Shown: positions 3,411 to 14,414 of the stretch, piece by piece
Layout of the letters: each line of letters opens with the position of its first letter
How positions within the stretch are numbered: the stretch's first letter is position 1
Assembly (NCBI GenBank): GCA_016930515.1
Contig: JAFGGO010000130.1
Span: 1-19,383 of the forward strand
Source: Promethearchaeota archaeon
GTDB lineage: Archaea > Asgardarchaeota > Lokiarchaeia > Sigyniarchaeales > SOKP01
DNA length: 19,383 nucleotides
Direction: 5' to 3'
Program-made: the position numbers and the translations under genes
The notes under the pieces: generated by a model
Told to the model about the DNA's origin: nothing
The model's input: only the letters and a program-made list of their open reading frames with translations
Database searches by the model: none

Positions 3411-4205
3411 TTATGGTTTTTTAGCTTGAATATACAAACGAGTATGTTTCATAGTTAGATTATTCTCGCCATTTGATTCAAGAAAAAAAACAATAGAATC
3501 GTTGATAAATTCATCGTGAAGATTTTGAGGAAGAACATTTAAATAAGGGACTAGGGCTGCAGCTCTAATATAATTACATAGATCCTCTTTATTGTCGAAT
3601 TCTATTATCATTTGTATTGGTTCGATTTGAATGGCGCAAAATCCACATTTCTCTAATATCTCTTCTGTTTCAAAAGACGTAAGAAATCTCCAGGGAAAAT
3701 CCATTGATTGAAAATAAGTATGATATTTTTTATCGTTTTCTAAAGTTTGTATCGTTTTGAATAAGGCATTGATCTCTTTTAAACCAGTTTGGACCATTAA
3801 TCGCCCTCCAGTTTTCAGAGCGTTGTAGAGTAAAGTGTACATTCTTTCTAAATTAATTATCCAATGTAAGGCAGAGTTTGAGAATACAGCATGAAATTGA
3901 TTTCTAAAATTGATGTCTAGAGCGTTATCGTGTATTATATTAACATTCAGGATATTATTCTTTTGAAGATTTTTTTTTGCTTGTTCAATCATGTGCTCCG
4001 ATAGTTCAATCCCCGTTATATTTCCGTGAGGAATTAATTTAGCAATTTCGATTGTCGTCATTGCGTTTCCACATCCTATATCTAGAATCTTTTCTCCGTC
4101 CTTGGGTTTGAGCATTTCTATTGCTTTCAAGCCTAAATTAAATTGAAATTGAGAACTTTTATCGTATAATTTAGCGTCCCATTTATGAGAGTTTTTGTAT
4201 TTCAT
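3411..4205 (-). CDS. Class I SAM-dependent methyltransferase (trans-aconitate methyltransferase-like)
   Basis: W-D-A-x-x-Y N-terminus, motif I ILDIGCGNA, GIELSEHMIEQA, FHAVFSNSALHWI, LKTGG. Confidence 0.88.
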   Translation of the reverse strand: MKYKNSHKWDAKLYDKSSQFQFNLGLKAIEMLKPKDGEKILDIGCGNAMTTIEIAKLIPHGNITGIELSEHMIEQAKKNLQKNNILNVNIIHDNALDINFRNQFHAVFSNSALHWIINLERMYTLLYNALKTGGRLMVQTGLKEINALFKTIQTLENDKKYHTYFQSMDFPWRFLTSFETEEILEKCGFCAIQIEPIQMIIEFDNKEDLCNYIRAAALVPYLNVLPQNLHDEFINDSIVFFLESNGENNLTMKHTRLYIQAKKP

Positions 4206-4210
4206 TTAAT

Positions 4211-4738
4211 CTACCCTTCTTGCTCTAGCACATCGTAAAATATCTTATAATCTTCATCAGAAAACAAACAAAAAACAACAATTTCAATTCCCGTGTTTTC
4301 TTTCAAGTAATTTATCACGGTATTAATCATTATTTGAGCACATCTATTGATTGGATATCCAAAAATACCAGTTGATATAGCTGGAAAAGCAATTGATTTT
4401 AAAGAATGTTGATCGGCTATAATGAGACTATTTTTCGTTGCCATTTTAAGCTTATAGTCTTCGTTTCCTTCGCCCATTCGAGGCCCTACAGCGTGAATAA
4501 CATGTCTTGTTTTTAATTTTCCTGCTGAAGTAATGGCCGCTTCGCCAACCTTTATTGGTGAAACATTATTGCATTGTTCTTGTATTGAGGGGCCTCCTTT
4601 CGTTCTAATCGCACCTGCGACACCCCCTCCTAATATAAGATTTGAATTAGCAGCGTTAACAATTGCGTCAGTGTTTTGATTCGTGATATCGTCCTTTACG
4701 ATTCTTATCGTGGAATTATTAATCCTATATTCTTTCAT
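4211..4738 (-). CDS. Macrodomain protein (MacroD/YmdB type; O-acetyl-ADP-ribose deacetylase / mono-ADP-ribosylhydrolase)
   Basis: DDIT..DAIVNAAN..L.GGGVAGAI, VIHAVGP, SIAFPAISTGIFGYP. Start placed at ATG 4738 (MKEYRINN, 175 aa), not 4834, because the domain begins there. A 5-nt gap to the methyltransferase suggests an operon. Confidence 0.92.
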   Translation of the reverse strand: MKEYRINNSTIRIVKDDITNQNTDAIVNAANSNLILGGGVAGAIRTKGGPSIQEQCNNVSPIKVGEAAITSAGKLKTRHVIHAVGPRMGEGNEDYKLKMATKNSLIIADQHSLKSIAFPAISTGIFGYPINRCAQIMINTVINYLKENTGIEIVVFCLFSDEDYKIFYDVLEQEG

Positions 4739-4992
4739 AACAAGATCTATTTGTTTAACTTGCTTTAAGTTTATTGCGTTATTATGAAATTTGAAATGGA
4801 TCATGTAAAACGATGAAAAATTCAAAATAACCAAATTTTTAAATTTTAGAAGTTATATTGAATCAATTAAGTTTGAAAAATGTTTTTCTAAAAATAATTG
4901 TAAAATCGAGTTTATTTACAATAGATTAAATTATTTCATAAATTACCTTAACATATAGTGCACCCACTAAAAGACCAAAGAACTGAAGAAAA

Positions 4993-5919
4993 TTGATTTC
5001 GAGAGTATTAGTTATAGCGCAAGGTGGTTTATTGGCATATTCCAAGAATTTTATCAACATAGCGGAAAGTCGGGATAGTGGTGCTACAGAAGGAGATTTA
5101 ATTAGCGGTTTTATCTCCGCCATAAGTACATTTGCCAAGGAAATAAAAGGTGGAAACATCCATTCACTTAATTTTAAAAACTTTAATATTGTCATGGAAT
5201 ACGACACGGAAACTGATACTATATTCTTTATAATTTGCGATATAAACGATATTGAGGAGGAAGTACGAGAACGCTCGATACTGTTGAAGGAGGAATTCAT
5301 AAAAAGACATAAAGAAAGACTCATGAATTGGACAGGGGAGCTTGTTCTTTTTCAAGACATGGAAGCGTTCGTGGAAGAAAATATCTTTATTCCTCCAAAA
5401 ATACTTATTGTTGGAGAAGTAGGTGTTGGAAAAACTACTATAATGGATTTATTCCCCGGAGAAACTATTATAGAGATTGACGAGGATTTAAACGAAATTA
5501 TTCAAAAGACAATTTATGTACAAGGTCTTAACCTCAGGCAATTCATTATTAGGGAGATGAACATTGAAGAGTTAGTTGACAATTCCAAGCTTTACAAGCC
5601 TCTTTTAAACAACGCCGATATTATTATCATCGTTACTAATTCTGGAGCAAGTAATTTAGCAAGAACTGCAAAATTATATCCTATCTTGAAAAAACTAGTT
5701 AAAAAAGCGGATTTTTATGTGATTGCCAATTTTCAAGACAATAAGGAACTGGCGTTTGAGCCAATCAAGATTGAAGAATTATTCGATGGGCTCAAGACAT
5801 ATGGATTTGCTGGAACGGAAAAAAAAGCTCAAGAAAAGATGTTCAATATAATGGTTGATGTGTTAAATAAATCCATTGTTGAAAAAATACAACACGATAA
5901 TCAAGAGATAACATCGTGA
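4993..5919 (+). CDS. Longin-like domain fused to a degenerate small GTPase (Ras-superfamily fold)
   Basis: TTG start. N-terminal ~125 aa fits a longin pattern (RVLVIAQGGLLAYSKNF...DLISGFISAISTFAKEI.GGNIHSL...IFFIICD). C-terminal half has the P-loop ILIVGEVGVGKTT, ADIIIIV strand and a G4-like ANFQD, but no DxxG G3 motif. Confidence 0.75.
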   Translation: MISRVLVIAQGGLLAYSKNFINIAESRDSGATEGDLISGFISAISTFAKEIKGGNIHSLNFKNFNIVMEYDTETDTIFFIICDINDIEEEVRERSILLKEEFIKRHKERLMNWTGELVLFQDMEAFVEENIFIPPKILIVGEVGVGKTTIMDLFPGETIIEIDEDLNEIIQKTIYVQGLNLRQFIIREMNIEELVDNSKLYKPLLNNADIIIIVTNSGASNLARTAKLYPILKKLVKKADFYVIANFQDNKELAFEPIKIEELFDGLKTYGFAGTEKKAQEKMFNIMVDVLNKSIVEKIQHDNQEITS

Positions 5920-5958
5920 GAAAAATAAAGCTAAACGAATCATTAAAAATGAAAAAAA

Positions 5959-6447
5959 ATGAAAATTGAAGAAGATTTTGTATTTCCCGTATATATATCA
6001 GATAAAATATTACAAGAGATAAAAAAAATATGTTCGAGCTACAAGGTCGAAGTATTTGGATATCTAATTGGAGAGATTTTTTCTTGGAAGAATAAAAAAT
6101 ATTTGCTTATTGAGCACCAATTTTATTCAAAAAAAACCTTCAAAAGCAATGCTTCTTTAGTAGCTCAAATTGAAGGAGCCTCAGGCGAGTTTAATCAGGC
6201 ATTAGAAAAATTAAAAAAAAAATCAAATAAAGACTCCTTAAGAAAGGTAGGGTGGTGGCACAGCCATCCAAACTTTGGCGTGTTTTTAAGCCCAACGGAT
6301 GTAAAAACTCATCGATATTTCTTTCCAGAACCTATTTTCGTGGCTTTAGTTGTAGATCCTATTCGAGACGAACACGAGTTTTTTAGCATTGACGACAAAT
6401 CAAAGAAAGGATATAAAGTCATAAGCAGCGCAATTTTAAATGAATAA
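5959..6447 (+). CDS. JAMM/MPN+ (JAB1/Mov34, Rpn11-like) zinc metallo-isopeptidase
   Basis: E31 in EVFGYLIG and an intact H101-S-H103-x7-S111-x2-D114 motif (GWWHSHPNFGVFLSPTD), followed by ALVVDP. Confidence 0.93.
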   Translation: MKIEEDFVFPVYISDKILQEIKKICSSYKVEVFGYLIGEIFSWKNKKYLLIEHQFYSKKTFKSNASLVAQIEGASGEFNQALEKLKKKSNKDSLRKVGWWHSHPNFGVFLSPTDVKTHRYFFPEPIFVALVVDPIRDEHEFFSIDDKSKKGYKVISSAILNE

Positions 6448-6475
6448 TTTCTCCTAAAAATTCTTTTTAATAAAC

Positions 6476-7345
6476 ATGACAGCTAATAACGATTATAAAA
6501 TCATAGGTCAAGAATCCATCGACGACGATATTTACGATCGACAAAAACGAATTAAAGGATGGGATCAAAAAAGGATTTCTAACGCTACAATCATGGTAAT
6601 TGGCGCAGGAGCGACAGGAAATGAAGTTGTAAAAAATTTAGTGTTATTTGGTATAGGAAAAATAATTCTTGTAGATTACGATACAATTAATGTATCGAAC
6701 TTGAATCGATGCGTTTTATTTAACATTAAGAGCGCTCAAAAAAACGAGTACAAGGCCGATGTAGTTAAAGAAGCTTGCAAAGACTTGAATCCTGATGTTG
6801 AGATTGCATCCTTAAAAGAAAATCTAAGCGATATAGACAAAAATCTCTATAAATGTGATGTTGTATGTTCCTGCGTTGATAACGTGGAAGCCCGGATTGA
6901 AGCCAATAATTACGCTTATTATTACGGAACACCATTTGTTGATAGTGGAATCGATGAATTTTTTGGGAGTGTTCAAGCAGTATATTCAAGAGTTCCAGAC
7001 GCAGCATGCTTGCAATGTGGAATCTCGGGAAAGGATTTGGATATAATGTGGAAAAGATTTTCCTGTACTGGTCAAGAAATTGAATCGGAAAACGGAGAAA
7101 CTGTGGGAAAAATAGCTACAATTATCACCACTACCTCAATAATTGGTGGAATACAAGCTCAACAAGTCCTCCAATTCGTTTTAGGTGTCGATTACTATAA
7201 AAAGCATGGACACTGGAATCTTGATATCGGTGAACCGCTCGTCGGAAAGCAACTTAACTATAACGGTCATACGAACAAGTTTGACATTATAGAAAAGGTG
7301 AAAAATCCCAGTTGTTGGACATGTTCTTATGAAAAAAAAGATTAA
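6476..7345 (+). CDS. Ubiquitin-activating enzyme E1-like (ThiF/MoeB/UBA family)
   Basis: YDRQ, GAGATGNEVVKNL, VDYDTINVSNLNR, YKAD, CVDNVEAR; Zn pairs C178-L-Q-C181 and CWTC; candidate catalytic C197 (RFSCTG) between them. Confidence 0.93.
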   Translation: MTANNDYKIIGQESIDDDIYDRQKRIKGWDQKRISNATIMVIGAGATGNEVVKNLVLFGIGKIILVDYDTINVSNLNRCVLFNIKSAQKNEYKADVVKEACKDLNPDVEIASLKENLSDIDKNLYKCDVVCSCVDNVEARIEANNYAYYYGTPFVDSGIDEFFGSVQAVYSRVPDAACLQCGISGKDLDIMWKRFSCTGQEIESENGETVGKIATIITTTSIIGGIQAQQVLQFVLGVDYYKKHGHWNLDIGEPLVGKQLNYNGHTNKFDIIEKVKNPSCWTCSYEKKD

Positions 7346-7421
7346 ATTACGAATCACAAAAAAATAAAACACATAAAAATCATAATAAATAATAAAAACA
7401 ATAATTGTAGAGGCTAATGTA

Positions 7422-7967
7422 ATGCCAGAACTACCGCACGAAATATGGAAAGAACGAATTGAAAACGAAATAAAGGGATTGAATCGCCTCGAGGTGCTCG
7501 AACCAGGTTCCATCCTCAAAAACGAAGACACGGTCGAAATGGTTCTTAACATTCACGCGTTTGGATTTATCAAAAAGAAGAAAAAATTAGTCCCCCAAAC
7601 TAATCATCGTATATTCATCAAAATAAATCGGGCTTTCCCATATCCAGGAGGTATTGATTTTGCATGGTATTCTAACATCTACCATCCAAACATTCATCCT
7701 GTGGATTTGAGCAATAAACAGCAGGGAACGGGATATATTTGCTTGAATGTGCTAAAAAAATGGTCAAGACTCTCGGATTTAGAAACGACTGTAAAAGCTT
7801 TGAAAATGCTTGTTGAAAACCCAAACCCAGATGATCCCTTAAATTACGACATTTGCTTGGATGCTACTGAATTTTTCAAAAACAATTCAATGGAAGATTT
7901 GATAAAGCAATATAGTTTACCAGAAGAGGACGAAGACGAAGACGAAATTAAAATAATAGATGATTAA
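7422..7967 (+). CDS. Ubiquitin-conjugating enzyme E2 (UBC fold) with an acidic tail
   Basis: ERIENEI first helix, FPYP, IYHPNI (H88-P-N90), GYIC107LNVLKKWS, L..L..NPNPDDPLN; C-terminal EEDEDEDE. Confidence 0.93.
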   Translation: MPELPHEIWKERIENEIKGLNRLEVLEPGSILKNEDTVEMVLNIHAFGFIKKKKKLVPQTNHRIFIKINRAFPYPGGIDFAWYSNIYHPNIHPVDLSNKQQGTGYICLNVLKKWSRLSDLETTVKALKMLVENPNPDDPLNYDICLDATEFFKNNSMEDLIKQYSLPEEDEDEDEIKIIDD

Positions 7968-7982
7968 AAGAGTAGAATAACC

Positions 7983-8156
7983 TTGAAAGATAAGAACAAG
8001 ATAGAACAAGAGGAAGTCCCAAATTCATCAGAAGATTCAGACCAAAATGACGATAGACCAAGGATTATTGGAAGTATTGACCCTATCATTCCAGAAAAAA
8101 GACCCCCTAACGATAAGATCAAGGATCATTTTATTACCGAAGAAGATAAAGCTTAA
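7983..8156 (+). CDS. Small acidic, probably disordered protein (57 aa), not in the ORF track
   Basis: Hand translation from TTG 7983: MKDKNKIEQEEVPNSSEDSDQNDDRPRIIGSIDPIIPEKRPPNDKIKDHFITEEDKA*. Coding-like purine-rich composition; sits between the E2 stop and the T tracts, in the same frame as E2. Confidence 0.55.
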   Translation: MKDKNKIEQEEVPNSSEDSDQNDDRPRIIGSIDPIIPEKRPPNDKIKDHFITEEDKA

Positions 8157-8162
8157 TCTGGA

Positions 8163-8250
8163 TTATTTTTTTAATTCTTCGTTTTTTTATGCATTTCGAT
8201 TTTCTTATTATGTTTTTTTTAATTAATTAATGAAAAATAGAAAAAAGAAA
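8163..8250. terminator. Bidirectional T-tract terminator region between convergent units
   Basis: Several T6-T8 runs on + after 8156, then A-rich runs (T on minus) at 8233-8250 downstream of the Ubl gene. Confidence 0.5.
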
Positions 8251-8260
8251 TTTAAGGCCA

Positions 8261-8518
8261 CTAATATCCTCCCACGACTCGAGCCCATAACGCTAATTTA
8301 TCGTTTTCTTTCAAACCAAACTTATGTATTGCATCTTGAATGGTGGAATCTGGAGGGAGTTCCTTGTTGTTCAAAACTAAAGTAAAGCTACGCTGTTCAG
8401 CACTAATTATTCCCATGTGCTTGATAATGATGTCAACTATTCGTTCGATTTTGTGGTGTTCTTTTACATCGAGCTTGATTAATTTTCCAGTCCGGGAATC
8501 TTCTACTTGTATGCGCAT
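8261..8518 (-). CDS. Ubiquitin-like protein precursor (beta-grasp; ends ...RVVGG-Y)
   Basis: 85 aa; aligns by eye with ubiquitin (MRIQV..TGKLIKLDV ~ MQIFV..TGKTITLEV; LVLNNKEL ~ LIFAGKQL; TIQD ~ TLSD; LWARVVGG ~ LVLRLRGG). Minus strand reads gga gga tat tag. Confidence 0.88.
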   Translation of the reverse strand: MRIQVEDSRTGKLIKLDVKEHHKIERIVDIIIKHMGIISAEQRSFTLVLNNKELPPDSTIQDAIHKFGLKENDKLALWARVVGGY

Positions 8519-10568: not shown

Positions 10569-10705
10569 TAGGTACAGCATCTTTTTTTTCTCTTATTCTT
10601 ATCGATAGTCAATAATATAGTAGACATTATTGTATAATTCATTTGTGTTTACGAGCAATTAACAATCTAATAAGACTTTTTAGAGATCCCGAATTTCATT
10701 TAATC

Positions 10706-12022
10706 ATGAGAGACATGATGAAATCACCGTTCTTACAAGGTTTTGCGTTCTGGTTAGTTGTTACAGTTAATTTAGTATTGACTTTTTTTATGGGGTACAT
10801 GCTAACTGCCCTTCCACTCATAGGATTTACCATCTCCGGCTTATTAATAATCATATTGTCATTCCTTGTCAACTTTACCATCGTATTCTATTTCAAGAGA
10901 TCAATAGAAATACCTAAGGATAGAAGATTATTTGTAGTAGTTCTAATTTATTTAAATGCTCTTTTTGCGTTAGCAATGGGCTTATCAATACCCTTAATGG
11001 AAGACCCCAGTAAGGACAATCTTGGGTTCGTAATGATTCCGCTTTTAATCATCTTGAACATCATAATTGTTGATAGATTTTTCTTTTATCTAAAGATTGG
11101 TAAATCCATTGAAGAAACGACTGATTTAAATATTACATCCTTAAAATCACAAAAAAGAAAATGGCCAATCATCGAATTTGAAGGAAAAAAATACCAATTT
11201 TCAATTCGTTCTCTTCTAATGTTGGCAATTGGTGCTCCGTTATTGGCGTGGCTTGTATATCTATTTTTCGACAACCAGGCGAACTTTTGGTTACACGAAA
11301 TCGTCGTCAAACAGACGGAGCTTTTTCTCAACCTCTTTTTTAACATGGGAGCGAGCGTTCAATATTATCCTTCGGGCATTTATCATTGGAGGTTTATCAT
11401 CCCTGGAACACCAACCCCTATATACTTCGAAACTTTTTGCACGGGGGTTCAGGCCATCTGCGTCTTCGTGGGTATCATAATATTCACACCACACAGCAAG
11501 GATCCCAAAACTAAAAAAGACATTGTATGGAGAAAAACGAAATCGTTAATCGTTTCTTCCATCTTGTTTTATGCTGTTAATATCATCCGGATGCTCATTC
11601 AATTAGATTTATATTACAACGGGTATAAGTGGGAGGACATCCATTATTCGATTAGCGCCGCAAGCTCTTTTATCGCAGCAATCATTGTTCTTTTGCTTCA
11701 CAAGTGGATTCCCGAATTCATCATATCGTTTATCTATGTTGGTACTTTAGTGAGCGAGCCAATAAAGGCAAAACGAATCAAGACTATCAAGGAACAGGTT
11801 CGACAATCTAATAGAGTTAGTCTTAAACTACTATCAAAAGTAATGAGTATGAAACGACAGACTTTTATTGTTAAATTCCCCGCTTTAATGAAAGATTTAG
11901 GATTTAAAATTGAGAATGGTCATATAATCGTGCCACCCGATAAAACAACGGAGTTTTTAGAAGGTTTGGACAAGAAATTTAAGTCAGATGACGAGACAAA
12001 AACAAACCTAAAAGAGGAATGA
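10706..12022 (+). CDS. Archaeosortase/exosortase-family membrane transpeptidase with extra N-terminal TM region and soluble C-terminal domain
   Basis: Multi-TM protein with the Cys-Arg-His triad in exosortase contexts: FETFCTG (Cys codon 11438), VNIIRM (Arg 11588), WEDIHY (His 11642). Start placed at ATG 10706 rather than TTG 10643, but this is uncertain. Confidence 0.78.
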   Translation: MRDMMKSPFLQGFAFWLVVTVNLVLTFFMGYMLTALPLIGFTISGLLIIILSFLVNFTIVFYFKRSIEIPKDRRLFVVVLIYLNALFALAMGLSIPLMEDPSKDNLGFVMIPLLIILNIIIVDRFFFYLKIGKSIEETTDLNITSLKSQKRKWPIIEFEGKKYQFSIRSLLMLAIGAPLLAWLVYLFFDNQANFWLHEIVVKQTELFLNLFFNMGASVQYYPSGIYHWRFIIPGTPTPIYFETFCTGVQAICVFVGIIIFTPHSKDPKTKKDIVWRKTKSLIVSSILFYAVNIIRMLIQLDLYYNGYKWEDIHYSISAASSFIAAIIVLLLHKWIPEFIISFIYVGTLVSEPIKAKRIKTIKEQVRQSNRVSLKLLSKVMSMKRQTFIVKFPALMKDLGFKIENGHIIVPPDKTTEFLEGLDKKFKSDDETKTNLKEE

Positions 12023-12921
12023 TAATGTTCGAGTACAATATTGAACAAAAAGTCGCTTCAGTGGGAAATGTAAAAATTGGAGGACAACCAGGAGAGAATC
12101 CCATTGTCATGGTGGGAACCATTTTTTATACAAAACATGCCGCTTTACTCGACGAAAAAAAAGGAGAGTTCGATAAAAAAATGCTTGAAAGTGAACTTAA
12201 CGAATTCGTATCGATAGTTGAAGACACTGGCATGCAAGCAATCGTTGATGTGGTGGGTTCGTATCCAGACACGCTCCTCAAGGAATGCCTTTACATCGCA
12301 GATTTGGTGGATTGCCCTTTCTTGGTTGATGGTTTAAACGATTCAAGCAGGATCCCTACCATGGAGGGCCTTCAGGAAGTAGGATTACTCGATCGAGCCA
12401 TCCTCAATAGTATTGACGAGAATACAGGAGATGAAAGTTTAAAACGATTGAAACGAGCGGGCGTGAAGAACGCAGTATTATTGACATTTTCGAACAGGGC
12501 GTATAATCCAATAAACAAGATCAAATTGTTAAAAGAAGTCCTCTTAGTAAAAGCAGAAAAAGCCGGCATTATAAATGTAATTGTAGATACAGCGGTCTTG
12601 GATCTCGTATCCATTGGTGTGAATCTAGAATCAACGCGATTAATAAAAAAAGAATTAGGGTTGCCAACTGGTTTTGCACCTGCGAACGCTATATATGGAT
12701 GGGATTATGTGAAAAAATATGGCGAAAGTGCAAGATGTGGTGCAATTGCTTCTGTAATGGCTTACTCTTCTGCAAGCGATTATATTCTATTTGGACCTGT
12801 TAAATTTGCAAAATGTGTCGTTCCTTCTATGGCTTTAATAAGCGGTATAAATTCGTATTATAGGAAGAGAATCTTGAGAAAAACCATATCAGAACAAGGC
12901 CCGTTGAAAAAAATATTTTAA
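12019..12921 (+). CDS. mtrH: MtrH-family pterin-binding methyltransferase (tetrahydromethanopterin S-methyltransferase subunit H-like)
   Basis: EQKV..VGNVKIGGQPGENP.VMVGTIFY, PFLVD, RAILNSI, IVDTAVLD, IKKELGLPTG..P.N, DYILFGP. ATGA overlap with the upstream gene. Confidence 0.88.
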   Translation: MIMFEYNIEQKVASVGNVKIGGQPGENPIVMVGTIFYTKHAALLDEKKGEFDKKMLESELNEFVSIVEDTGMQAIVDVVGSYPDTLLKECLYIADLVDCPFLVDGLNDSSRIPTMEGLQEVGLLDRAILNSIDENTGDESLKRLKRAGVKNAVLLTFSNRAYNPINKIKLLKEVLLVKAEKAGIINVIVDTAVLDLVSIGVNLESTRLIKKELGLPTGFAPANAIYGWDYVKKYGESARCGAIASVMAYSSASDYILFGPVKFAKCVVPSMALISGINSYYRKRILRKTISEQGPLKKIF

Positions 12922-14414
12922 GCCATATATCTTGAGATTAGTCCACTGTTCCTGCTCAAGAATTCCGGTAGATTCTGGTTAATGTGATTTTTTTTTTGTT
13001 CTTCGTCAATTAAGAATAGAAGAAATATATCTTGACCATCTAATTTGGCTCGTTTAAACAAGATGACAGAGTCTGCAATTTTAAAAATCGTTTCTTTTTC
13101 TCTTAATGCTTTAAATTTCTCGAAAATCTTGAATAAGGTGGTAAATTGAGGGGCAGTAATTTCGAAAATTTCCTTCATATTAGTTCCTATTGTTCCAGAA
13201 TTAGAAAGATGCTTAGAAGAAGATAAAGTTTTGGAAGCGTGATCTGCTAATAATAAACCATCTTGACTTAATAATAATATTAAAGAGATTCCATTTTCTT
13301 TTGAAAAAGTTTGGAGGTTAAATTGAATGAGATCTCTGTTAGGACTTAACTGTGCAATTCCTGATGAAAACGCCCTTAAAACGCTGAAAAGAGAAAATAT
13401 ACTCGTAGTATGTATTTCTGGAGGAGTTCCTTGATTGAGATTTGTTAGTTGATTTGTGATGTTTTTAATGTTTTGTTGTATTTTAGAAGTTTCAATGATA
13501 TCAGGGTCTGCTTTGGTAAGAATGTGAATGATGGGAGTGTTCTGTTCTAATCGCTTTAAATCCTCTTTAACTCTCGTGAGATATTGAATGCTTTCCTTAA
13601 ACCGATCAGCTCTTTGTAGGTCAATAAAAAAAAATATGAGATCGGCTTCATAAAGATAAATTTCGGATCTCGAAAGATACTTCTCTCGAAATTGGAGCTG
13701 TCCCCCTAAATCCCATAATGAAATAGTAGCACCGGCAGCTCTAATCGTGGAAATACTTTCTCCTCTCGTAGGTTTCACTCCTAAAAGTTTTGAAAACCTA
13801 CGATCAATAGTAAAAAAGAAACTGGTTTTACCGGCAGAATCCAATCCGAAAAAAATTATTTTAAGTTTTCGATCAGCAGTAATCGGATTGGATGGCTTAT
13901 TTTCTACTTCTATGAGTTGAATGACTAGGTTTTCAAACACATGATGAACTGAATCATAAGGAACGAATCCTTCTGAAAATTCTTTATCCAAGTGTTTAAA
14001 GGATTCTAAAATGAGCTTTCTTATTTGATCGTTGTTATTGTACAAAAAACTCCGTTTTTTCTCGTCAACGAGTATGGAAAACGCAGTGGGTATCGGTTTA
14101 TCCGTGTTTTTTAACCAAATAAAGTGAAAATAAGTAAGAGCAGTAATTTTATAATCGGGGTAGGGTAGAATTGCAAAATAATTGGCATTCTTGAGGTTTT
14201 CGTCGTCTAAATTCATCTTATCGCTTATTAATAAGCTTAAGTTTTTAATGGAAATTTGCGTGTAATCCCTAAGCGTCAAGCTAAACTCGTTTGAATTCTC
14301 CTTTTCTGTTTCTGAAACGGGATCGGGATACGAATATTTTGGCATTGGACCAAATTTATCGAGAGCTGAAAATAAAAAACCCATGATCACTGAAGATTTC
14401 GGAATTCTACGCAT
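12918..14414 (-). CDS. Tri-domain protein: putative longin/uDENN domain + Rag/Arf-like small GTPase + roadblock-like domain
   Basis: G1 GLDSAGKTS, G2 PTRG, G3 WDLGGQ, G4 TKAD, G5 TSIF. The following segment resembles the Rag C-terminal roadblock (AFS.GIAQLSP..DLIQ..L..FSKENGI.LILLLSQDGLLLAD). N-terminus FSALDKFGPMPKYSYP resembles uDENN/longin starts. Confidence 0.8.
   Translation of the reverse strand: MRRIPKSSVIMGFLFSALDKFGPMPKYSYPDPVSETEKENSNEFSLTLRDYTQISIKNLSLLISDKMNLDDENLKNANYFAILPYPDYKITALTYFHFIWLKNTDKPIPTAFSILVDEKKRSFLYNNNDQIRKLILESFKHLDKEFSEGFVPYDSVHHVFENLVIQLIEVENKPSNPITADRKLKIIFFGLDSAGKTSFFFTIDRRFSKLLGVKPTRGESISTIRAAGATISLWDLGGQLQFREKYLSRSEIYLYEADLIFFFIDLQRADRFKESIQYLTRVKEDLKRLEQNTPIIHILTKADPDIIETSKIQQNIKNITNQLTNLNQGTPPEIHTTSIFSLFSVLRAFSSGIAQLSPNRDLIQFNLQTFSKENGISLILLLSQDGLLLADHASKTLSSSKHLSNSGTIGTNMKEIFEITAPQFTTLFKIFEKFKALREKETIFKIADSVILFKRAKLDGQDIFLLFLIDEEQKKNHINQNLPEFLSRNSGLISRYMA

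Follow-up and report, generated by a model that had tools for sequence, protein, structure and literature searches.

Ubiquitin systems of Asgard archaea are known mainly in a RING-dependent, ubiquitin–ESCRT form, and we know of no natural targets for them. The operon described from Caldiarchaeum and Asgard archaea encodes ubiquitin, an E1, an E2, a small RING protein, and an Rpn11-like JAMM protease (PMC5654768, PMC9192718). Fusions of longin domains with Arf-like GTPases are likewise on record, with five in Lokiarchaeum (PMC4917890), longin- and roadblock-GTPase architectures across Asgard archaea (PMC10933270), and ArfR (10.1101/2024.02.28.582541). Each of these parent systems has thus been described, but the literature searched contained no case of the two combined, and neither the G-domain family nor the cassette reported here was described in that literature, of which subscription journals made up a small part. 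Here, in a 19,383-nt window (the whole stretch of DNA that was analysed), we identify from sequence and gene order a 308-aa longin-fused putative pseudo-GTPase (4993..5919, plus strand) that descends from the Asgard longin-Arf-like GTPases, has lost their switch and catalytic residues, and belongs as a dedicated component to a second ubiquitin-like (Ubl) system of Lokiarchaeia. The names of homologues assign the window to Lokiarchaeia/Promethearchaeota.

The cassette (4993-8518) resembles the Caldiarchaeum-type operon in that a pro-Ubl with a di-glycine, an E1, an E2 with a catalytic Cys, and a JAMM protease are clustered. It differs in having no small RING, a short E1, and a Ubl on the opposite strand, and in carrying the putative pseudo-GTPase and a micro-protein as extra components. 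The JAMM/MPN+ protease (5959..6447, plus strand; Pfam JAB, 1.5e-10) begins 39 bp downstream of the G-domain gene and has an intact metal motif, which is found in 63 of 67 homologues. It is followed by a ThiF-type E1 of only 289 aa (6476..7345, plus strand; Pfam ThiF, 6e-50), whose best PDB sequence matches are to UBA1, and by an E2 with an HPN motif and catalytic Cys (7422..7967, plus strand; Pfam UQ_con); the catalytic motifs of all three enzymes are intact in nearly all homologues. The C-terminus of the E2 (7935-7964, plus strand) consists of an acidic run, four aliphatic residues, and terminal acids, a SIM-like tail that recurs in 66/70 homologues, including those of family f4, and is a candidate non-covalent Ubl-binding motif. 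Convergent with the E2, the 85-aa pro-Ubl (8261..8518, minus strand) ends in Gly-Gly-Tyr, with a di-glycine that is invariant among homologues; its predicted beta-grasp fold (Z 11-12) is no nearer SUMO than ubiquitin, and its sequence is nearer ubiquitin. The Ubl gene is opposite in strand to the E2 in 60/60 loci. The initial annotation had set the 4993-5919 gene at the head of the Ubl operon; because the Ubl gene itself lies on the opposite strand, the two are not on the same transcript.

The same genome carries another cluster (G000:C26:1475-6972), recognized by sequence and BLAST only, with an E1 (415 aa), an E2 (175 aa), a JAMM protease (268 aa), and two similar 120-aa small ubiquitin-like candidates. 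This cluster is probably the standard Lokiarchaeal ubiquitin system, and because its E1, E2, and JAMM genes are separate, the 4993-8518 cassette counts as a second system in the genome. No small RING E3 gene lies in the 4993-8518 cassette or elsewhere within the 19,383-nt window. TATA counts gave no pattern. Other genes of the window include a macro-domain gene (4211-4834, minus strand) and a methyltransferase gene (3411-4205, minus strand), divergent from the G-domain gene and found beside it in the same genus only. A 459-aa multi-membrane protein without a Pfam match (10643-12022, plus strand) has motifs that may resemble those of an exosortase or archaeosortase. Elsewhere, a Ubl homologue forms the N-terminal domain of a 431-aa ORF (L110:2-1297, G106:C248) with no di-glycine and no Pfam match.

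Distribution and gene order tie the G-domain to this system. In a set of 161 genomes from the class, 73 carry the G-domain and 73 the E2, with 69 carrying both, four the E2 only, four the G-domain only, and 84 neither; these related genomes are not independent, though presence is patchy inside genera, with both genes in 13/42 genomes of genus g2. The eight mismatched genomes are mostly incomplete assemblies. The G-domain gene lies directly upstream of the JAMM gene in 60 of 66 JAMM loci (57 by script and three, L053, L073, and L091, by inspection), the others being at contig edges (two) or rearranged (four). The spacer between the two genes is at most 63 bp in 54/57 loci, and they overlap in six; co-transcription of the G-domain gene with JAMM-E1-E2 is therefore likely. 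The synteny survey proposed in the initial annotation thus shows tight linkage between this gene and the Ubl genes of related genomes, not the absence of linkage that would have refuted the proposal. Among 301 genomes across the phylum, the cassette was found in family f1 only; a separate test of four f4 genomes also detected the system, there with the G-domain gene clustered with JAMM and E1 and with the E2 and Ubl elsewhere in the genome. The system is lineage-restricted, confined to two Lokiarchaeia families among the genomes searched. Several genes flank the G-domain gene in relatives: a 630-aa wHTH-TPR gene, possibly a dedicated regulator, precedes many of its copies, and at L034, L040, L044, and L051-L058 a canonical Rab-like GTPase gene precedes an 870-aa longin-G-TPR-nitrilase form, with the micro-protein on the other strand between them.

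The ORF at 4993-5919 opens with TTG where homologues have ATG. Pfam by itself names neither of its domains (best E 0.012), and because of this failure we relied on fold searches with an AlphaFold2 model built on 30 homologues (pLDDT 82, pTM 0.79). Residues 1-135 (4993..5397, plus strand) match longin domains of CPLANE (7q3d_C; Z 14.3, rmsd 2.6, 124 aligned residues), Vamp7 (4afi_B and 2vx8_A; Z 13.8 and 13.6), and TRAPP (3cue_A; Z 13.6), and the model has the elements of the longin fold, a five-stranded sheet between one and two helices. The longin-like N-terminus noted initially is thereby borne out as a predicted domain. Residues 132-299 match Arf structures, mainly GDP forms, at Z 17-18 and rmsd 2.2-2.6. 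In the model, switch I forms an additional strand pairing with beta2, which is a prediction rather than proof of the real state; the same pairing is the arrangement in GDP-bound Arf (10.1101/2024.02.28.582541).

To place the G motifs, we set 121 G-domains of the clade against 33 canonical sister domains from Asgard archaea that a profile search had recovered. The motifs named in the initial annotation are all where it put them (G1 at 141-148, its G3 stretch at 185-193, NFQD at 246-249, and FAG at 272-274), and so is the intact P-loop (5413..5436, plus strand), with K147 and S/T148 each present in 120/120 close homologues. The loss of the G2 Thr had been missed and is visible at position 171, which is Gln in the 308-aa protein, Gln, Lys, or Glu in 108/121 clade members, and Thr in 32/33 sisters; T158 was rejected as a replacement, being out of register and present in just 71/121. 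The register of G3 was fixed by gap-free alignment of the protein to the sisters from residue 190 to 217, together with HMM alignment to GerdArfR1 and Arl1. The earlier statement that no canonical DxxG is present stands, but its register was wrong, the true G3 being residues 190-194 (5560..5574, plus strand), and a reading of R187-E188 as the 'WD' of G3 was dropped, since the ungapped sister alignment places the Asp at 190. In the 308-aa protein the G3 Asp, Gly, and Gln have become Asn, Glu, and Leu. Across the clade, position 190 is Asp in 81/121 and Asn in 36/121, position 193 is acidic in 101/121 (60 Glu and 41 Asp) and Gly in 33/33 sisters, and position 194, the catalytic Gln of 31/33 sisters, is Leu in 113/121. 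A DxxG pattern is present in one of the 121 G-domains, and a search of the clade for an alternative DxxG or G2 Thr, the route by which normal turnover might have persisted, found neither.

At G4 (5728..5739, plus strand), 111/121 family members retain Asn and Asp and have Phe in place of Lys; counted by itself, the Phe is present in 114/121 (Lys in 32/33 sisters; Met or Lys in place of Phe in family f4). NFQD without its Lys was thus correctly read, but its loss does not show that nucleotide binding is gone, since G1, the G4 Asn and Asp, and the family G5 are conserved. Nor is the G5 sequence FAG diagnostic: SA occupies the position in 94/121 family members, and AG occurs once, in the 308-aa protein only. 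In canonical GTPases, the gamma-phosphate is sensed through the G2 Thr and the G3 Gly, and the water that attacks it is held in place by the Gln. Because all three are gone, GTP switching and hydrolysis have probably been lost in the clade; guanine nucleotide binding may be retained, as G1, the G4 Asn and Asp, and the family G5 are kept. The degenerate group is split from the canonical group with a support of 0.988 in a tree without ArfR references; since a mislabelled f4 sequence served as its root, we use the unrooted split and do not rank the motif losses in time. Comparison with an orthologue of 83% identity gives a pN of 0.08-0.11 and a pS of 0.81-0.85, the latter saturated. Fixed across the clade in a gene under strong purifying selection, the motif changes are neither chance nor decay, and the original description of a catalytically atypical, longin-fused G-domain holds, with the addition that it is a dedicated part of the Ubl system. 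A frameshift splits the G-domain gene at two loci (L015, G002:C379, and L053), by assembly error or decay. A weak match in family f24 (G195), considered as a clade member, proved to be a canonical GTPase. The window also holds a canonical contrast, a 498-aa Gtr1/RagA-type GTPase (12918-14414, minus strand) with an intact DxxGQ and a weak C-terminal roadblock match.

Switch I (5464..5508, plus strand) is remodelled in the clade by an insertion of about five residues and has a mean charge of -5, against -1 in the sisters. An hhXh-acidic, SIM-like pattern, lying on the modelled strand at residues 158-162, is present in 114/121 clade members versus 3/33 canonical sisters; the pattern is degenerate, with a background of 2.3% per 11-aa window. 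It arose a single time in the clade, and the hydrophobic positions could simply be packing the hairpin. Adjoining the strand is K172, present in 119/121 clade members and absent from the canonical sisters. In SUMO-SIM recognition, K39 and K46 of SUMO1 bind the acidic flanks of the consensus SIM (PMC8616421), and the cassette is similar in its predicted hhXh-plus-acidic strands, one in switch I of the G-domain and one in the tail of the E2. The strongest opposite-charge covariation among 1491 residue pairs joins G-domain position 164 to Ubl K19 (r -0.83), and positions 164 and 188 also covary with Ubl R26. In the Ubl model, K19 ends beta2 and R26 begins alpha1; these residues probably correspond to SUMO1 K39 and K46. 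One or two evolutionary events account for the covariation, which was seen by eye before it was computed and is no more than suggestive of a G-domain/Ubl contact. Complex prediction with the G-domain (129-300) and the Ubl (1-84) supplied as alignments scored 0.37 against 0.01 for the best control, a value in the weak band that gives no interface, with contact agreement between runs of at least 96% and partner pLDDT of at least 81. In calibration, 58/80 solved pairs and 2/110 mismatched pairs passed, and the passes with scores of 0.60 or below comprised only seven of the 80 solved pairs and both mismatches; the G-domain/Ubl score could also stem from the predictor's memory of complexes of the Ras-RBD or SUMO-SIM kind.

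Throughout the family the G-domain stays the same and its partners vary. Most members are longin-G proteins, with up to three in tandem, and others are longin-G-TPR-nitrilase (~870 aa), G-TPR, G-nitrilase, or G-TIR. Because the G-domain is constant, the longin domain does not provide the connection to the Ubl system. The longin is dispensable, with TPR, TIR, or nitrilase modules in its place in many members, so the membrane link proposed initially, or one to trafficking, is not the conserved core. PADLOC matched none of the G-domain, E2, or Ubl; it gave generic matches for the JAB and E1 proteins and assigned the nitrilase tail to the DRT nitrilase model. Giant TPR-TIR and TPR-nitrilase genes adjoin the cassette at several loci (L043:4440-11777, L080:1188-5021, and L149); their C-terminal modules are common to the G-domain fusions, and the Glu-Lys-Cys motifs of the nitrilase look intact.

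Sixteen satellite loci pair a G-domain gene tail-to-tail with a Ubl paralogue and have no JAMM, E1, or E2 gene between them. Since the satellite Ubl paralogues sit in three places on the Ubl tree, the pairing arose at least three times, and since the two genes stand at opposite ends of the main cassette, the pattern is one in which the enzymes were lost or bypassed and the pair retained. In G127, a long form has moved off from the enzymes along with a Ubl copy (L124, L080), leaving a JAMM-E1-E2 block without its G-domain neighbour, and in G124 (99% complete, 200 contigs) two G-domains and one Ubl were found and a cognate E1/E2 was not. Solitary G-domain copies also occur (L042, L107, L118, and L125-L129), and no Ubl gene adjoins either of the two deepest degenerate relatives. 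Directly upstream of many satellite Ubl genes (L111-L122, L049, L085) lies a 420-450-aa winged-helix-repeat gene, a possible dedicated regulator.

A 57-aa micro-protein (7983..8156, plus strand), in which two hydrophobic strands enclose a PP core, is a real conserved gene and a further component of the cassette. It is present at 60/66 JAMM loci and in 72/161 genomes, 67 of which also have the E2, and is absent from satellite loci. The gene is usually divergent from, and just upstream of, the G-domain gene, and has moved to a place behind the E2 in the source genus. Its start codon alternates among ATG, TTG, and GTG, and all four Pro codons are in use. An antisense or non-coding micro-ORF is disfavoured, since the remaining frames are for the most part closed and variation is greatest at third positions, though in a set that was selected in that frame. 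The 180 database homologues are unnamed among the matches listed, and no relatives were found in the PDB or Atlas. In the tandem-SIM E3 module of ZNF451, two SIMs are separated by PLRP (PMC12630355); the micro-protein loosely recalls this arrangement in its two hydrophobic strands around a proline core, but it has no PLRP and no detectable homology to ZNF451. An orphan copy (L150:6519-6662) lies by dnaJ/dnaK-like genes in G029, a 100% complete genome in which the cassette E2 and G-domain were not found.

We propose that the protein probably recognizes or receives the Ubl tag rather than switching by GTP hydrolysis, and our leading reading, held tentatively at somewhat under an even chance, is that of a pseudo-GTPase serving as a dedicated reader of the cassette Ubl. 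Guanine nucleotide would still be bound without cycling, in an Arf-GDP-like rest state that leaves switch I as an exposed beta-strand. This hydrophobic, acid-flanked strand would pair with the Ubl along its beta2/alpha1 groove, in the way that SIMs bind SUMO, so that occupancy by free tag, tagged proteins, or a self-attached tag replaces GTP as the input. The tag would be written by the E1 and E2 with RING-like ligases and erased by the JAMM protease, and the output would run through the attached domain, a longin here and TPR, nitrilase, or TIR in relatives. We arrive at this model because the motif losses are fixed, the G-domain and E2 are co-inherited, and the satellites keep the G-domain and Ubl alone. 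Against it stand the f4 cluster of G-domain, JAMM, and E1 only, the solitary copies, and the deepest relatives without an adjoining Ubl. Those same solitary paralogues are what a passenger gene unrelated to the Ubl system would predict, a reading that synteny largely refutes, since the gene co-occurs with the Ubl, lies near it, and is lost and duplicated together with it, and that we regard as hardly credible. The JAMM protease or the E1, rather than the Ubl, would be the true partner if the protein were a regulator or scaffold of these enzymes, as the immediate neighbourhood of the JAMM gene with its short or overlapping spacers and the f4 arrangement might suggest; all 16 satellites retain the Ubl and drop JAMM and E1, however, and the G127 G-domain left its enzyme block in company with a Ubl, which makes this partnership improbable. 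It is harder still to credit an active NTPase acting by a non-canonical mechanism as a normal switch over the cassette, whether hydrophobic-substituted or cation- or dimer-activated, with acidic residues at 163, 165, 188, and 190 holding Mg. The conserved P-loop Lys and Ser/Thr, the G3 Asp of two thirds of the clade, and the G4 Asn and Asp would suit such an enzyme, and GTPases of the Era, EngA, and FeoB type do hydrolyse GTP without the Gln, FeoB also without the G4 Lys. These enzymes keep the G2 Thr and G3 Gly, however, both of which are gone in the clade; the G3 Asp is Asn in the 308-aa protein, and some satellite members have altered even the residue that follows the P-loop Lys.

Two further readings keep the Ubl at the centre. 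In one, unlikely but not far-fetched, the protein is a dedicated covalent substrate, with the E1 and E2 attaching the Ubl to a conserved Lys, K172 being the candidate acceptor, the JAMM protease removing the tag, and modification replacing GTP switching. The near-invariance of this clade-specific Lys beside the SIM-like strand, and the GG-ending Ubl paralogue that accompanies each satellite G-domain speak for it, and it is compatible with SIM-guided docking. K172 may instead be structural, apparently facing a conserved acidic residue at 157 across the hairpin; it lacks a SUMO-type acceptor consensus, and G124 retains the pair without a detectable cognate E1/E2. The other reading, which we consider rather improbable, makes the protein an E3 substitute or adaptor whose G-domain closes the E2~Ubl in the manner of ZNF451 or RanBP2 and whose longin or TPR recruits substrates. 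SIM-only E3s exist (PMC12630355), the cassette in the window has no RING gene, and a constant G-domain with variable interaction domains would fit. This role, also put forward in the initial annotation, is weakened by RING-like genes, which adjoin the Ubl in 26/60 main loci (as 7TM genes directly upstream, with Pfam RING/PHD-like matches below cut-off) and lie within the fetched region in 39/60; the source genome has about 24 matches, a few of them doubtful, to a C4C4 RING-like zinc-finger profile. Moreover, TIR and nitrilase fusions resemble outputs rather than substrate receptors, the E2 is dropped from satellites, and the micro-protein, placed after the E2 and absent from satellites, better suits a small cofactor role. 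RING-like finger proteins on C157, C45, C145, C32, C175, and other contigs, many with one to three membrane segments, form an expanded family of candidate ligases that is far more widespread than the cassette, so they are candidate rather than proven ligases for it, but the premise that no E3 is available is weak.

If the reader model is correct, small GTPases would be directly linked through this cassette to Ubl conjugation, both of them 'eukaryotic signature' systems, and if recognition is indeed of the SIM type, archaea too read a modifier in the manner of SUMO. The cassette names one defined candidate, a soluble protein of 308 aa that may be reader or substrate, and all the enzymes are encoded alongside, which makes the target question accessible in vitro with six small proteins. 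A fuller picture, speculative and unlikely, is that Lokiarchaeia evolved a second, SUMO-like system whose cascade is run by short beta-strand motifs and in which a former Arf-like GTPase is Ubl-gated, the tag binding or being attached at switch I in place of GTP, and controls attached TIR, nitrilase, TPR, or longin modules; the micro-protein would serve as E2 cofactor or as an E3 that lacks a RING. This analysis adds the correction of the G3 register, the pairs found at satellite loci, the SIM-like strand with its weak support from modelling, and the testing of the micro-protein across the family. Because the system is restricted to two Lokiarchaeia families, it bears on parallel innovation more than on eukaryotic ancestry.

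The 308-aa protein shares its architecture and ancestry with the Asgard longin-Arf-like fusions; the best PDB match of its profile is an Asgard Arf-like entry (8OUM, E 1e-6), and 12 matches occur in its own genome. Where the Asgard ArfR clade is marked by an N-terminal amphipathic helix, this protein has a longin domain at its N-terminus. These sisters keep the G2 Thr, a WDxxGQ-type G3, and NKQD, whereas the clade has lost all three, gained an acidic switch I strand, and become tied to a Ubl cassette. The animal RGK proteins (Rem, Rad, Gem), with a poorly conserved G2, Glu for the G3 Gly, and G4 and G5 kept, are thought to depart from the GDP/GTP switch (PMC4081519). The clade is similar in its lost G2, its G3 Gly-to-Glu change, and its retained G4 Asn and Asp and family G5; RGK proteins, however, are Ras-derived and carry DXWE, whereas the clade is Arf-derived, lacks the Trp (position 192), and has Leu for the Gln and Phe for the Lys. 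To judge from these motifs, the resemblance is one of convergence and not of membership and, if the proposed role is borne out, a prokaryotic pseudo-GTPase would have converged on the RGK pattern.
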